Sequence record: OP870146.1
Length of the DNA: 64,000 nt
Direction: 5' to 3' (one strand)
Source of the DNA: Escherichia phage vB_Eco_F27
The notes below the pieces were generated by a model. It saw only the letters and a list, made by a program, of their open reading frames with translations. It was not told the origin of the DNA and made no database searches. Of this stretch, positions 3,628-55,750 are shown piece after piece. The stretch's first letter is position 1, and each line of letters starts with the position of its first letter. The position numbers were made by a program, and so were the translations under genes.

Positions 3628-3656
3628 AAATTAAAATGAAGCTCCCGAAGGAGCTT
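3628..3656 (-). terminator. rho-independent terminator (UUCG tetraloop)
   Basis: AAGCUCC-UUCG-GGAGCUU then UCAUUUUAAUUUU on minus transcript; between HNH and glycosyltransferase genes. Confidence 0.55.
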
Positions 3657-6311: not shown

Positions 6312-6337
6312 CTAAAGCAAAAAGGGCCGAAGCCCTT
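6312..6337 (-). terminator. rho-independent terminator (UUCG tetraloop)
   Basis: AAGGGC-UUCG-GCCCUU then UUUUGCUUU. Confidence 0.6.
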
Positions 6338-21885: not shown

Positions 21886-21912
21886 ACGAAAGGAGACCGA
21901 AGTCTCCTTTTT
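21886..21912 (-). terminator. terminator-like hairpin after gene 41 (possibly bidirectional)
   Basis: GGAGAC-UUCG-GUCUCC; short U-run on minus transcript, longer T-run on plus side. Confidence 0.45.
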
Positions 21913-29036: not shown

Positions 29037-30706
29037 TGATGAGTGATATCGCCACCGATTGGACGATAGGAAACACCAGTTTCTTTATCAGTTAGTACCC
29101 ATTTACCAGGATTTTTTGTAATCAGAGTAGCCGTTACAGGTTCTGCTACGTCATAACTAATAGAGCCGTCTTGAAGTACACGGCCCATATTACGTAATTG
29201 CTTAGTCAGAAGTTCCATACCTTTATAATATGCGGCTACCGCTTTAAGTGGATTATTCTTGAAATAACCACCTAATGCAATCCAGATAATTGCCACTGCC
29301 AAATGATGATACTCGTTAAACGAACTCATCTTTCCATATTTGTAAACTAATGGATTGATGTTAATAGTCACATTACAAGTTGTTTCATCAATAGTAAACT
29401 GTCCCCAGGTCGGATTAGCGTTGAATTCATCATAACCTGAAACAGCATAAAGCACTTTAGCTTCATCATACAATTTTGGCCCGTAAATCTTTGTTTCGCC
29501 AAAATATCCACGAGGGTCGATAAATTTGACTTCGCCGTTATCAGTAATCATAGTATTACTGAAGTTCGGGTCACCATGAATAACAGAGTACTGTCCCTGA
29601 GAACGGTTATGATAACGAATAAGGTGTTCTAAAGCTTGTTTCAGCATTGGCTTCAGACGTCCAATCTTAGTGTAGTTCACATGTGTGATTTTACCAAATG
29701 AATCAATCAATGGTTGAATGCTTTCACAACGATCAATAACTTTCGTATAGAATTCTTTAGTGAAATCACGACGAACAGTTTCAGGACTTACAAAATAAGT
29801 GTCTGTGCTGAATTTCAGTGCATCTAAAATTGCATCAACAATTTGTGGACGAGCAAGACTTGATTTGGATTTAATATATTCAAATGCCGGCTTACCTTTA
29901 ATGCGTTCCATTTCAAAGTTATTTTCATTAACAGAAACTAACTGAGGGACTGAATCTGATTTCACTTTCAAATACCACGAAATCTCATCTTTCTGAAGAG
30001 CTCGGCCCTGTTCGGTTAATGCGAATTTAGTTACAGTTTCTTCACCAATTTCAACTGCATTAAAACTACGATTAAGTTCACGAACTTCATGAGCTTTTTC
30101 AAGTTTAGGCATATCACCTAAATCAATTAGATTCATAAGCTCTGATTTATTGAATGCGCTGGCGTAAAGGAATTCTACGAAATCACGTCCTTTGCAGTAT
30201 TCATGAATTTCCTCATCGGTAGAACCCATATAGAATTCCCAGTCTTTGAACTGATAAATTCCTACAACATTACCACCTGTTGAACCTACGTTAGTGATAT
30301 TTTCACCGTCGAAATTATATCGACATTCGTCACCCTTAACATAGATTGCGTTAACATTCCAAGACCATGAACCAAAATCAGGAATAATATCACACCAGTT
30401 AACAATTACGTTATGGCCGTCTAAATCTTTGTGTAATTTAGCAAGAGCATAAGCAGAACCATACGCTTCATCAACTGTACGAATAGTCACATTGAACCCT
30501 TCTTGCTCACAATAAGCTCGAACAGTTTCAGCAAATTTTGAATGAACTACTACAATAATTTCATCTGCGCCAAGGTCAGAATAAATTGTATACAAATTGC
30601 TCAGAATAGTGTCTTGTTTATAGTTAACAAGCACCTTAGGAATATGATGCGTTATTGGATATAAACGAGTTGCCAATCCAGCACCAAGAATAACAGCTTT
30701 TTTCAT
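29021..30706 (-). CDS. bifunctional sugar-1-phosphate nucleotidyltransferase / APH-type sugar kinase
   Basis: N-terminus ILGAGLATRLYPIT..PKVLV (RmlA/GlmU-type G-x-G-T-R-L); C-terminus HGDPNFSNTMITDNGEVKFIDPRGYFG (APH/choline-kinase Brenner and DFG-like motifs). Confidence 0.7.
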   Translation of the reverse strand: MKKAVILGAGLATRLYPITHHIPKVLVNYKQDTILSNLYTIYSDLGADEIIVVVHSKFAETVRAYCEQEGFNVTIRTVDEAYGSAYALAKLHKDLDGHNVIVNWCDIIPDFGSWSWNVNAIYVKGDECRYNFDGENITNVGSTGGNVVGIYQFKDWEFYMGSTDEEIHEYCKGRDFVEFLYASAFNKSELMNLIDLGDMPKLEKAHEVRELNRSFNAVEIGEETVTKFALTEQGRALQKDEISWYLKVKSDSVPQLVSVNENNFEMERIKGKPAFEYIKSKSSLARPQIVDAILDALKFSTDTYFVSPETVRRDFTKEFYTKVIDRCESIQPLIDSFGKITHVNYTKIGRLKPMLKQALEHLIRYHNRSQGQYSVIHGDPNFSNTMITDNGEVKFIDPRGYFGETKIYGPKLYDEAKVLYAVSGYDEFNANPTWGQFTIDETTCNVTININPLVYKYGKMSSFNEYHHLAVAIIWIALGGYFKNNPLKAVAAYYKGMELLTKQLRNMGRVLQDGSISYDVAEPVTATLITKNPGKWVLTDKETGVSYRPIGGDITHQWERI

Positions 30707-31563: not shown

Positions 31564-34275
31564 TCAAAAATCGAACATATCGAACAGAGATGCTTTCTTC
31601 TCGTAATCGAGTTTCGCTGCTGATGTGAATCCTTCAAGTGGTTTAATAAATGTCTTCTCAAGGAGAACAGTGTAGTCCATCCAATGAAGTACATCGTCTT
31701 TAATTAAATCTGTGATTTCAGTACCAGAAGGCCATGCGATACATTTATCACCGAATGGGTTTCCTTCACGTAAAGGCAGAACATATACTTTTTCACCTTC
31801 TACAACTTGCGGTGCATCGATATTACCTTTGATAGCCCGGTTATACGTCAGAATTCCACGAATATGGAACGGGCATTTGGGACCAGGGAATCCACCTACG
31901 TCATATTTAGCAATGTTATTCGCAGAAGATACCGACGCGATGCTAATATAATTCAATTGACGGAATTCTTTTTCAAACTCTTTAAAATATTCTTGTAATG
32001 ATTCTTCACCTTCTTGAAGCATACGACGAATACATTCTTTAAGAGCTTTCTGTACTGCTTTAGGGGTCGAAGATTTCTGAGTTTCTAGACCCATGATTTT
32101 GAGTTTAGGCTCGGCGTAACGAGTACCTTCCATATCCCACACGTTTAATGCATAACGTTTCTTACCAGTCCAGAATCCACCAATACCTTTAGAACCGAGC
32201 GGAGGACCAGCGATAGCTTCTCGGTCCATGAACATTAAGTGTTGTTTATTGTTCATGTATTCACACATTTCACGGAAACCTCTATCAATAGCAGGTTCCA
32301 TACGTTCACGTGCAAACTTATCTAAGAAGTCTACCCAATGGTTAGTATCGCGGAATTTAGATTCACCGACCTTATCGATAATTTTATCGGCGGATACGTA
32401 AATAGAGTCTGTATCACCATAAAGAACGAAAGCTTCACCTTCTGTACCACAAACTTCATTCAGATATTCATTAACTTTACGTTCAATCCACTGTAAAGCC
32501 ATTTGACCAAATGTTGTGATTGCAGTTGCATTACGCAAATCGTAATAACGGAACCAAACGTTTCCAAGTGCACCATAAAGCGAGTTGATAAGCAATTTAC
32601 GGTTAATTTGTGCAGTCATACCTGCAACTTCAGTACGTTGAGCTCTAAACAACATTTCATTAAGAGATTTAGCAGACAACTTTTTAATCTTTTCTTTAAT
32701 CTCATCACTGAAGTCGAAACGATAATCAACATCTAATGGTTCGTCAACAGAAAGATTAGGATTATGCAATGCCTCTTTAATTATTTCGCCATTACGTTGA
32801 GCTGCAAGCATGTAACCTTTATGTTCTTTACGTTGATTAAAGACCTTAGTGATTTCAGTTGGAACTACACCATCACGGTCTTTATAATACATCATGCCGT
32901 TAGGAGAGCAACTGTACACATCTGAAGGACGTTCAGCGATTGCGTTAATATAATCATGCAGTGGAGCTACTTTAAACGTTCCTGCTATTGTTTCAGGGCT
33001 AATATTCACTTGGCGAATAATACTTGGATACAGAGATGTAAGGTCGAAACTCATTACATATTTGTATCGATTTGGAATAGGTTCCTTAACAAAAGCGCCA
33101 GGATAAGGTTGAACCGGGTGAGAACGACCTTGTGGAATCACCTTGTTCTGCTCTTTAAGGCTATTAAAAATAATAGCATCCCATGTTTTAATTGGACTGA
33201 ACACAGATTGAATCTGAATTTTAGCATAATAACCCATGTCCAAACTCAAGTTGATGAACTGACGCTTAGCATCAATTTGCAATACACGATATACGTCGAT
33301 AATGTTATAAGAAATATATCGTTGGTGATTGCTTTCACGAAGTTTAGAAATAGGACCGTCGTATTTCAGTTTACCAACGTTCAATTCAAATTCTGAAATG
33401 TAATCCAGAGAATACGACGGTTGGTTCGTGAAAGAGAACTTTTTGTAAAGGTCAATGTAATCAAGAACAGAGATACCGAACAATGTAATGATTTCACGAG
33501 AACCATACATGTTTTCGATAACTTTAACACGAGTTTTACGATGTGGTGATAAACGTTTAGCGGTAGATTCGCCAAAAATATTCTTGATTCGGTTATACAC
33601 ATATGGAATATCAAATGACTCAACGTTCCATCCAGTCAAAATGACAGGAGTTTTCTGTTGCCAGAAATTGAGATATTCCATCAATAATTCTTTTTCATTA
33701 TCAAACGGCATATAAACAATTTTGTCGATAATTTCGGATGGAACTTCATCACCACCTTGTTCTTGAAGCTTAGCCGCAATTTCGATAGACCATTCTTCTA
33801 CATTACCATATGGAGAATTCAATAGATCAAATACGTAGAACCTGTCGTCAATTGAGTCATAATGGGTGATAGCATCAATCGGATGTTTTGCTTGTGACGG
33901 CTCAGGGAACCCGTCCGGAGATGTTACTTCGATGTCGAAGTTAGCCACACGAATTTTTGTATGGTCGTATTTGATTTCATAGTTATAAGTGTCAGACAAA
34001 TACGCCAATTTGAAATCGTCCATGCCAAGTGCTTCAAGTCCGATATCTTCCATGCGTTTAATCCATTGTGAGGCATCACGCATATTAGCGAACAACTTAC
34101 GAGTACACGGCTTACCATAGATATCGAAATATTTCGTAGCCTGACTTTCTGGACAATGAGCAAACAGTGATGGTTTATATTCTACTTCACGAGTACGTTC
34201 ACGGCCATTAGAATCGATGTAACGTTCAAAAATTGAATCACCGATCTGTTCAACCGTTAAGTAAAATTCTTTCAT
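31564..34275 (-). CDS. 43: DNA polymerase, family B
   Basis: 903 aa; exo motifs FDIEV, YNIIDV; pol motifs DLTSLYPSII, KILINSLYGALG, YGDTDS; N-terminus as recalled for RB69 gp43. Confidence 0.97.
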   Translation of the reverse strand: MKEFYLTVEQIGDSIFERYIDSNGRERTREVEYKPSLFAHCPESQATKYFDIYGKPCTRKLFANMRDASQWIKRMEDIGLEALGMDDFKLAYLSDTYNYEIKYDHTKIRVANFDIEVTSPDGFPEPSQAKHPIDAITHYDSIDDRFYVFDLLNSPYGNVEEWSIEIAAKLQEQGGDEVPSEIIDKIVYMPFDNEKELLMEYLNFWQQKTPVILTGWNVESFDIPYVYNRIKNIFGESTAKRLSPHRKTRVKVIENMYGSREIITLFGISVLDYIDLYKKFSFTNQPSYSLDYISEFELNVGKLKYDGPISKLRESNHQRYISYNIIDVYRVLQIDAKRQFINLSLDMGYYAKIQIQSVFSPIKTWDAIIFNSLKEQNKVIPQGRSHPVQPYPGAFVKEPIPNRYKYVMSFDLTSLYPSIIRQVNISPETIAGTFKVAPLHDYINAIAERPSDVYSCSPNGMMYYKDRDGVVPTEITKVFNQRKEHKGYMLAAQRNGEIIKEALHNPNLSVDEPLDVDYRFDFSDEIKEKIKKLSAKSLNEMLFRAQRTEVAGMTAQINRKLLINSLYGALGNVWFRYYDLRNATAITTFGQMALQWIERKVNEYLNEVCGTEGEAFVLYGDTDSIYVSADKIIDKVGESKFRDTNHWVDFLDKFARERMEPAIDRGFREMCEYMNNKQHLMFMDREAIAGPPLGSKGIGGFWTGKKRYALNVWDMEGTRYAEPKLKIMGLETQKSSTPKAVQKALKECIRRMLQEGEESLQEYFKEFEKEFRQLNYISIASVSSANNIAKYDVGGFPGPKCPFHIRGILTYNRAIKGNIDAPQVVEGEKVYVLPLREGNPFGDKCIAWPSGTEITDLIKDDVLHWMDYTVLLEKTFIKPLEGFTSAAKLDYEKKASLFDMFDF

Positions 34276-34287
34276 TTAATTTCCTTT

Positions 34288-34303
34288 AGACGAGTTATTG
34301 TCT
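34288..34303 (-). promoter_or_regulatory. hairpin directly 5' of gene 43 SD (possible autogenous translational operator)
   Basis: mRNA AGAC-AAUAACUC-GUCU (4-bp stem, 8-nt loop) followed by AAAGGAAAUUAA-AUG, like the known T4/RB69 gp43 operator arrangement. Confidence 0.4.
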
Positions 34304-34336
34304 TTTGTTTGTTGATGAACTTATTATACTCCAAAT

Positions 34337-34350
34337 GGGACCGAAGTCCC
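34337..34350 (-). terminator. GC-rich UUCG-tetraloop hairpin after regA
   Basis: GGGAC-UUCG-GUCCC; weak U-tract. Confidence 0.4.
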
Positions 34351-34356
34351 ATTGCT

Positions 34357-34725
34357 TTAATTACCAATTGTATATTTTGCTTTCAAAGTCCAGTCATCTT
34401 TCTGTTTAAAAGAGATAACTCGGAAGTTATTAGTCAGGCCAAACAGATCTTCACGAGCAGAGTCTTCAATAACAATCAATCCCCAGTCTTCAAGCAACTG
34501 AGCAATCGAATCACGTCGTTGGTAGTCTTCACCATCGATATCAACTTGACGTCCGTCCATACGCAGCATTTCTTTAAAGTGGACGATATAGTATTTACCT
34601 TGCTTTTGGAGGATATGACAAGACTGGTAAAGGACTTTATCCTTGTTATTAGCGATGCCCATACGGGTCAAAGTCTCTTTGACTTTCAGAAAATCTTCAG
34701 GGTTCTTCAATTTAATTTCAATCAT
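34357..34725 (-). CDS. regA: RegA translational repressor
   Basis: MIEIKLKNPEDFLKVKETLTRMGIANNKDKVLYQSCHILQK...NNFRVISFKQK matches recalled T4 RegA. Confidence 0.92.
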   Translation of the reverse strand: MIEIKLKNPEDFLKVKETLTRMGIANNKDKVLYQSCHILQKQGKYYIVHFKEMLRMDGRQVDIDGEDYQRRDSIAQLLEDWGLIVIEDSAREDLFGLTNNFRVISFKQKDDWTLKAKYTIGN

Positions 34726-34727
34726 TT

Positions 34728-35291
34728 TTACCATTCCAATGCTAATTTTTTAAATTGTTTTTGTTCTTTCACATTTTTTGTAACTTCTTTGAGAAACTCA
34801 TCAGTGACCATGGCCTTCAGTTCTTTAAGGACTATTGGCAACTTGTTATTTTTTTCAAGGAGCCGCTTATACACAGTAGCATCATTCATGTTGATTGTGT
34901 AATGTTTCATCAACAGTTTGATAACTAGTAACTCTGAAGTGTCTTCGACTAGTTTAGCCCATTTAGAGAATCGTCGGCCACGTGGAATTGCCGCCATCAT
35001 ATAGTTGAAGTGCGCTTCATCACTTAATTCAGAACCGACCAAGTTCATCATGTAAACTGCGGGCATACATTCTGGAAACTGGGACAATGAGTTTTCAACC
35101 ATAAATTTTGAGTAGTCAACCTGAGCAATTGACATCGATTTCTTTTCATTAATTGCGTTAATGATTTTAAAGAATTCGTTCTCAGGTTTTTCTTTAAACA
35201 TGTCAGCACATTTTTGAATCGCATCAGCGTCGTTAGACTTCCATGCGATTTGGTGCTCGTTAAGTTGGACGTCATCATCAAATAAGTTCAT
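34728..35291 (-). CDS. 62: clamp loader small subunit
   Basis: 187 aa; [17 protein letters not shown]...; synteny with 44/45. Confidence 0.9.
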
Positions 35292-40959: not shown

Positions 40960-40988
40960 AGCAAAAAAAGGAACTCCGAAGAGTTCCT
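40960..40988 (-). terminator. rho-independent terminator
   Basis: AGGAACUC-UUCG-GAGUUCCU then UUUUUUUGC. Confidence 0.65.
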
Positions 40989-55711: not shown

Positions 55712-55745
55712 ATATTTTAACCCCCTAAAGGGACCCGAAGGTCCC
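55712..55745 (-). terminator. terminator-like hairpin
   Basis: GGGACC-UUCG-GGUCCC then UUUAGGGGGUUAAAAUAUUUUU. Confidence 0.5.
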
Positions 55746-55750
55746 CACAT

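Follow-up and report, generated by a model that had tools for sequence, protein, structure and literature searches.

In Escherichia phage vB_Eco_F27, 81 nucleotides (nt) separate the gene for the translational repressor RegA from that for the DNA polymerase gp43, and two hairpins can be drawn within them, one directly after the regA stop codon and the other directly before the Shine-Dalgarno (SD) sequence of gene 43. Do both belong to the leader of the polymerase mRNA, and is the second the site through which the polymerase represses its own translation? We addressed these questions in a 64,000-nt stretch of the phage DNA (OP870146.1; hereafter the window), in which a sequence-only reading had assigned both hairpins to the gene 43 leader and had likened the second to the gp43 autogenous translational operator. 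Inspection of the sequence confirms that both are present on the minus strand, in the places that this reading had given them. As set out below, the spacer is very probably a stack of three elements, namely a terminator-like hairpin, a middle promoter of the P43 type and a gp43 operator. The corrected map thus runs from the end hairpin of the upstream unit through a promoter to the operator, in place of two hairpins in a single leader.

The replication cluster and its regA-43 spacer

The two genes lie within the T4-type replication cluster 45-44-62-regA-43. The regA gene (34357-34734, minus strand) specifies a RegA protein of 125 amino acids (aa), identified from the list of open reading frames (ORFs), from a match to the Pfam family Translat_reg (E = 4.9e-60) and from the regA annotated in RB69; its UAA stop codon occupies 34359-34357. 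Gene 43 (31564-34275, minus strand) encodes a family B DNA polymerase of 903 aa with the Pfam domains DNA_pol_B_exo1 and DNA_pol_B. The product, which is both the protein of the regulated gene and the repressor, matches over its full length the RB69 polymerase of the crystal structures 1CLQ and 1IG9 (~2090 bits) and is 62% identical to T4 gp43.

Both genes are encoded on the minus strand, and the spacer between them agrees with that of RB69 at every base (100%); the flanking genes differ from the RB69 genome by ~1.6%. A 1-kb query around the site retrieves RB69 at 98.4% identity along with ~150 other Mosigvirus genomes at 98-99% (95-99% identity in 153 records). Of 157 Mosigvirus records, 143 match the 93-nt leader at 99% identity or more, as against differences of 1-5% in the surrounding kilobase. 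Judged by its sequence, the window is that of an RB69-type phage. Read from 5' to 3', the regA stop codon UAA is followed by AGC, the hairpin AAUGGGAC-UUCG-GUCCCAUU (34353-34334), a single U, GGAG (34332-34329) and UAUAAU (34328-34323); thereafter come AAGUUCAUCAACAAACAAA, the second hairpin AGAC-AAUAACUC-GUCU (34303-34288) and AAAGGAAAUUAA, which leads into the AUG of gene 43 (34275-34273). In many relatives, a small additional ORF stands between regA and gene 43, in spacers of 200-460 nt and often ending in ...IEI* (loci L005-L007, L009-L015, L019-L020, L023, L031, L035, L037-L042 and L068), whose product is called a hypothetical protein in database records.

The UUCG hairpin after regA

The first element is a C(UUCG)G hairpin at 34334-34353 on the minus strand, recognized by its folding, covariation and position. 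The sequence-only reading had seen it as GGGAC-UUCG-GUCCC after regA; that GC core is present at 34350-34337, but the stem is longer than was claimed, with 8 bp that begin 3 nt after the regA stop codon. The 14-mer has a predicted energy of -7.5 kcal/mol and the extended stem one of -11.7 kcal/mol; relatives range from -11.5 to -15.7 kcal/mol. The stem occurs in many compensated forms (GGGAC/GUCCC, GGGGC/GCCCC, GGGCC/GGCCC, GGAGCC/GGCUCC, GGGAG/CUCCC, GGCC/GGCC and GCGGG/CCCGC). Across 22 distinct relatives, aligned by the loop and related by descent, 92.6% of its cells are paired and seven of the eight pairs change on both sides, and none of 500 shuffles attains the covariation score; this covariation rules out a chance hairpin. 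The loop, UUCG with a C:G closing pair in the window, is UUCG in 17 of the 22 and UUAC, GAAA, UACG or UCCG in the others.

Several observations bear on what the hairpin does. In most relatives, its homologue is flanked by an A-run and a U-run in the manner of an intrinsic terminator, and in Klebsiella phage Metamorpho it is annotated as 'terminator'. Where an ORF has been inserted, the hairpin follows the stop codon of that ORF and stays with the promoter-operator module beside gene 43. In the window, the sequence 3' of the GC core, AUUUGGAG, has three U in eight positions, compared with four to six in relatives (e.g., UUUUUGGA in the JS98 types). A terminator scan did not call the hairpin on the minus strand, flagging it on the plus strand only, and the GenBank and RefSeq records of T4 hold no promoter or terminator features in the regA-43 interval. 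The adjacency to a stop codon, the A- and U-runs of the relatives, the Metamorpho annotation and the recurrence of CUUCGG hairpins elsewhere in the window (see below) together point to a leaky terminator or a 3'-end stabilizer of the 45-44-62-regA unit as the most likely role. Given the poor U-run and the lack of a minus-strand terminator call, the hairpin may terminate inefficiently or not at all and may serve solely as a stabilizer. We picture the hairpin with its short, interrupted U-run as marking the 3' end of the 45-44-62-regA transcripts, where it would serve both as a leaky terminator and as protection against exonucleases.

Hairpins of this kind were first described in T4 mRNA (PMC4371310). 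The window copy resembles the T4 C(UUCG)G intercistronic hairpins in its UUCG loop closed by C:G, its GC-rich stem and its position directly 3' of a stop codon; it differs in lying only 5 nt from a -10 element and in its poor U-run. The hairpins of the T4 intercistronic regions were reportedly the subject of work by Tuerk et al. in 1988. On the same strand of the window, five of the seven strong CUUCGG hairpins start between -2 and +4 nt of an ORF stop, and the start codon that follows is 26-63 nt away from these stop-linked copies. Other C(UUCG)G hairpins directly after ORF stops are those at 3639-3656, 21889-21910, 55729-55746, 6322-6337 and 40969-40988. At the last two sites (minus strand), the hairpin is followed by a U-run, TGCTTTA, a 12-bp interval and TAGAAT, i.e., by a canonical middle promoter of the MotA type, which makes 'hairpin plus middle promoter' a recurring way of punctuating genes in this phage. 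When the plus strand is considered, the palindrome after regA reads AATGGGAC-CGAA-GTCCCATT followed by GCTTTAATTA, and a simple scan calls it terminator-like; in this orientation it could stop antisense transcription.

A predicted gene 43 promoter between the hairpins

Between the hairpins lies a -10 element, TATAAT (34323-34328, minus strand), which we identify by its conservation and by the mapped T4 start as the homologue of that of the T4 middle promoter P43. TA[T/A]AAT is found at the same place in all 39 operator-bearing leaders, usually within GGAGTATAAT. The hexamer 17 bp further upstream, TGGGAC, matches the -35 consensus at two of six positions; a scan for sigma-70 promoters did not list the gene 43 promoter, because it has no -35 hexamer. 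In T4, the P43 start is placed at position 29933 (Hinton review, PMC2988021, Table 1), which is 40 nt upstream of the gene 43 ATG at 29893. On the T4 sequence, position 29933 corresponds to the C of TATAATATATCAAGAGCC, which is 5 nt beyond the -10 element and precedes the operator hairpin by 4 nt. RNA-seq has shown the T4 region that includes gene 43 to be highly MotA-dependent (PMC6024815); a literature search for a T4 genome-wide data set of start sites or terminators found none. Transcript ends of T4 and RB69 have probably been described by Hsu and Karam in 1990 (J Biol Chem 265:5303) and by Yeh, Hsu and Karam in 1998 (J Bacteriol 180:2005). The window promoter shares with T4 P43 the conserved -10 context, the lack of a -35 hexamer and a distance of ~40 nt to the gene 43 AUG. 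It differs in having no canonical MotA box, that is, (a/t)(a/t)(a/t)TGCTTtA at 12 +/- 1 bp upstream of the -10 element.

By homology with T4, the gene 43 mRNA of the window should start at about 34318-34316, i.e., 41-43 nt before the AUG and ~15 nt before the operator hairpin, which would place the UUCG hairpin at roughly -18 to -37 of the predicted promoter. This analysis speaks against the earlier assignment of two hairpins to the gene 43 leader: the UUCG hairpin ends 5 nt upstream of the conserved TATAAT and the mapped T4 start falls downstream of it. On the predicted start, the hairpin is outside the primary gene 43 leader; since transcripts from this promoter would start downstream of it, only read-through RNA would carry it. 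We therefore take the TATAAT element, standing without a -35 hexamer 5 nt beyond the hairpin, to be the probable core of a MotA/AsiA-dependent P43 homologue.

The proximity of hairpin and promoter admits a different reading, in which the UUCG region works mainly as DNA, the loop (G/A)CTTCG being the MotA box of P43 and the palindrome incidental. Comparison of the loci L002 (T4), L006-L012, L013-L015, L022, L029-L031 and L038-L042 reveals two promoter layouts. One, seen in the Moon, CC31/PG7 and Metamorpho types, has a distinct box (TGCTATY or TACTTTA) at 11-12 bp from the -10 element. The other, that of the short-spacer class (T4, RB69 and JS98 types), places the hairpin 5-9 nt from the -10 element, and its sole MotA-like core is that of the loop, which reads GACTTCG (13-14 bp) or GGCTTCG (13-15 bp); in the window, the best candidate is the GACTTCG inside the hairpin loop, with four of seven positions matched at 13 bp. 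Relative to the mapped T4 start, GCTT occupies -31 to -28, the usual place of the MotA core. Further, MotA tolerates deviations from its box, and an ACTT core is functional in T4 P46 (PMC2988021). A MotA box, however, has no need of compensatory changes in a surrounding stem. Moreover, the UUAC, GAAA and UACG loops lack a CTT core yet stand in the same layout, the relatives with a separate canonical box still keep the upstream hairpin, and the 15-bp spacing of T4 falls outside 12 +/- 1 bp. Hence, we consider it unlikely that the region acts chiefly as DNA.

A dual use of the same bases can also be envisaged, though we advance it only tentatively and regard it as rather doubtful: in the lineages of T4, RB69 and JS98, the gene 43 middle promoter may have taken in the terminator hairpin as part of its -30 region, such that the DNA of the CTTCG loop doubles as the MotA core. 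What prompts the idea is the place of GCTT relative to the T4 start, whereas the loops without CTT and the wide T4 spacing oppose a strict requirement. If it were true, the tetraloop would be under joint selection at the RNA level, as terminator or stabilizer, and at the DNA level, for activator binding; the end of regA transcription and the MotA-activated initiation of gene 43 would then be physically coupled within ~25 bp. On this view, the layout with a separate MotA box, as kept by the Moon, CC31/PG7 and Metamorpho types, is presumably ancestral.

It appears distinctly improbable that the two hairpins act together in the gene 43 5'UTR, with an mRNA derived mostly from regA read-through, in which the UUCG hairpin nucleates folding, stabilizes the 5' region or modulates the function of the operator. 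The weak U-run does make read-through plausible, in T4, early transcripts extend into the middle genes as well (PMC2988021), and the hairpin is never separated from the gene-43-proximal module, not even by an inserted ORF. Against this, a conserved -10 element lies between the hairpins, and the start mapped in T4 is downstream of the first. Their spacing is also variable, with 5-21 nt from the end of the stem to the -10 element and 5-25 nt from there to the operator loop. No pairing between them is conserved, the long-range pairs of the minimum-free-energy fold being weak A-U pairs only, and similar hairpins follow unrelated genes in the window.

A smaller element of the spacer concerns the read-through RNA. 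The GGAG 5' of the -10 element (34329-34332, minus strand) is a candidate site for RegB: GGAGUAUAAUA (34322-34332, overlapping the -10 element) matches 9 of the 11 positions of the strong cleavage consensus GGAGRAYARAA (PMC3014915). It is GGAG in most relatives and GUAG, AGAG or GGGG in others, and is thus not strictly conserved. A role as a RegB processing site on read-through RNA is possible, if speculative.

The gp43 operator beside the ribosome binding site

With a terminator-like hairpin and a middle promoter assigned to the 5' half of the spacer, the short leader that follows would carry the operator, consisting of the hairpin AGAC-AAUAACUC-GUCU (34288-34303, minus strand) and the adjoining AAAGGAAAUUAA and AUG (34273-34287), within which the SD sequence GGA occupies 34284-34282. 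The 4-bp stem and 8-nt loop next to the SD sequence are as the sequence-only reading had described them; the hairpin ends 3 nt 5' of the GGA and 12 nt 5' of the AUG. In both T4 and RB69, gp43 represses its own translation (Uzan and Miller 2010, PMC3014915), through operators that consist of a hairpin and a sequence overlapping the ribosome binding site. The hairpins have 18 bases in T4 and 16 in RB69 with loop nucleotides in common, and the UAAC bases of the loop are those selected in the first SELEX (PMC3014915). The RNA crosslinks to the palm domain of the polymerase, and no structure of a gp43-RNA complex was available as of the 2010 review (PMC3014915). The polymerases of T4 and RB69 have distinct RNA specificities and target sequences, and binding of RNA and DNA by gp43 is mutually exclusive (Karam laboratory, PMC535899), which is the basis of the feedback logic. 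Operators of this class have a 4-5 bp stem and the 8-nt loop AAUAACUC with a UAAC core, of which the 3' AC is critical; the window hairpin has all these features. Its 4+8+4 bases add up to the 16 of RB69, just as the 5+8+5 bases of AGCCU-AAUAACUC-GGGCU add up to the 18 of T4.

Alignment with the characterized operators bears out the earlier suggestion that this hairpin is the gp43 operator: it is identical to that of RB69, and its loop to that of T4. Since the entire spacer is the same as in RB69, the SD-proximal hairpin is, on this sequence identity, the published 16-nt translational operator of RB69 gene 43, and hence already known. The likeness extends from the 16-nt hairpin with its loop beside the SD sequence to the cognate polymerase, which is essentially RB69 gp43, and no difference is detectable. 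The T4 operator shares the loop, the position in the leader, the order promoter-hairpin-SD and the mechanism; its stem, however, has 5 bp (AGCCU/GGGCU, -6.3 kcal/mol) as against 4 bp in the window (AGAC/GUCU, -3.2 kcal/mol), and 23 nt separate the end of its loop from the AUG as against 16 nt. The gene 32 operator of T4 and RB69 (a pseudoknot with an A/U-rich tract) offers a thematic parallel, in that a replication protein free of DNA binds its own leader and represses translation; it differs in the protein involved and in the use of a pseudoknot with cooperative single-strand binding. The RB69 operator is reported, via reviews, to have been studied experimentally by Wang, Pavlov and Karam in 1997 and by Petrov and Karam in 2002, and that of T4 by Andrake et al. 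in 1988 and Tuerk et al. in 1990; the 8-nt loop of the T4 operator was the SELEX target of Tuerk and Gold in 1990. In the 1997 work, T4 gp43 reportedly bound its own operator only and RB69 gp43 bound both. A full-text literature search for AAUAACUC returned only unrelated papers on siRNAs and miRNAs, and a scan of 33800-34900 against Rfam (E up to 10) gave chance matches only, with none to the operator.

Mechanistically, polymerase that is free of primer-template DNA would bind the operator RNA and block the 30S subunit, resulting in autogenous repression. Such repression has been shown experimentally for RB69 and T4 (PMC3014915); for the window, sequence identity and conservation argue for it. 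The gp43 operator is textbook biology and a classic of translational control, and its detection here means that an experimentally proven regulatory RNA was correctly recognized from raw sequence alone.

Folding energy by itself was rejected as evidence for the operator, being marginal relative to shuffled sequences: the predicted -2.2 to -3.2 kcal/mol is matched by 12 of 200 shuffled versions of the 16-mer, and z lies between -1.5 and -2.8 in most sequence contexts. The hairpin is instead taken as real on account of its conservation. From 80 RegA-linked loci in IMG/VR, the gp43 start could be located in 49, which gave 42 unique leaders. Among these, 39 have AAU[A/C/U]ACU[C/G] at 14-28 nt before the AUG, such that the loop is indeed conserved in most of them. 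The loops of 19 distinct relatives read AAU[A/C/U]ACUC, with positions 1-3 and 5-7 (six of eight) and the first base of the 3' stem invariant. The stem takes the forms AGAC/GUCU, AGUC/GACU, AGGC/GUCU, AGACU/GGUCU, AGCCU/GGGCU, AGUCC/GGACU, GGUCU/GGACC, GACC/GGUC and AGACC/GGUCU, with 85% of the cells paired and four of five pairs changing on both sides. In this alignment, which is anchored on the loop and made up of sequences related by descent, the covariation score is 0.767, whereas shuffles give 0.286 +/- 0.042, with none of 500 attaining that score, and slid partners give 0.19 at most; part of the signal comes from a one-pair difference in register between the 4-bp and 5-bp stem classes. 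The covariation rules out a chance hairpin. A covariance model built from the alignment finds a single site in the 64-kb window, at 34308-34283 (34 bits, E ~2e-6), with a runner-up at 13 bits. Applied to 36 distant RegA-linked loci (RegA ~52-58% identical), the model found no further operators, a weak negative since gene 43 lies outside most of the DNA fetched for them.

That the hairpin might be a generic 5' stabilizing hairpin or a RegA target in place of a gp43 operator is highly improbable: the ribosome binding site is A/U-rich (AAAUUAAAUG) as are RegA targets, but RegA sites are without structure (PMC3014915), and the conservation reaches beyond structure to a loop sequence identical to the SELEX-validated ligand of T4 gp43, within a sequence identical to the RB69 operator studied experimentally.

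The aligned operators vary in their stems and at loop position 4 (alignment column 13; 34296 in the window). The variants AAUCACUC and AAUUACUC at this position are scattered over the lineages, differing even between the close relatives L013 and L015, and neither a G at position 4 nor the SELEX 'major variant' loop occurs among the aligned sequences; the pattern is consistent with position 4 being a tolerated one. This catalogue of natural operator variants (A, C or U at loop position 4; 4-bp and 5-bp stems), along with the two promoter layouts, could guide studies of gp43-RNA specificity.

Some T4-related polymerases are without autoregulation, and RB49 uses a UAAA loop (PMC3014915). The AAUNACUC hairpin is lacking from the gene 43 leaders of the RB49-like locus L044 and of L024 and L045-L047; a hairpin with the UAAA loop of the RB49 type was not located in the RB49-like leaders. 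L044 keeps the upstream GC hairpin, whose loop is GAAA and which has a long U-run. At two other loci, promoter and operator are closely packed: only 1 nt in the EcS1-like L018 and 5 nt in L027 separate TATAAT from the 5' arm of the operator stem, so that transcription starting at the normal spacing would begin within the hairpin. The operator of L018 is also shifted in register, as GUCC-U-AAUAACUC-GGAC with a 9-nt loop.
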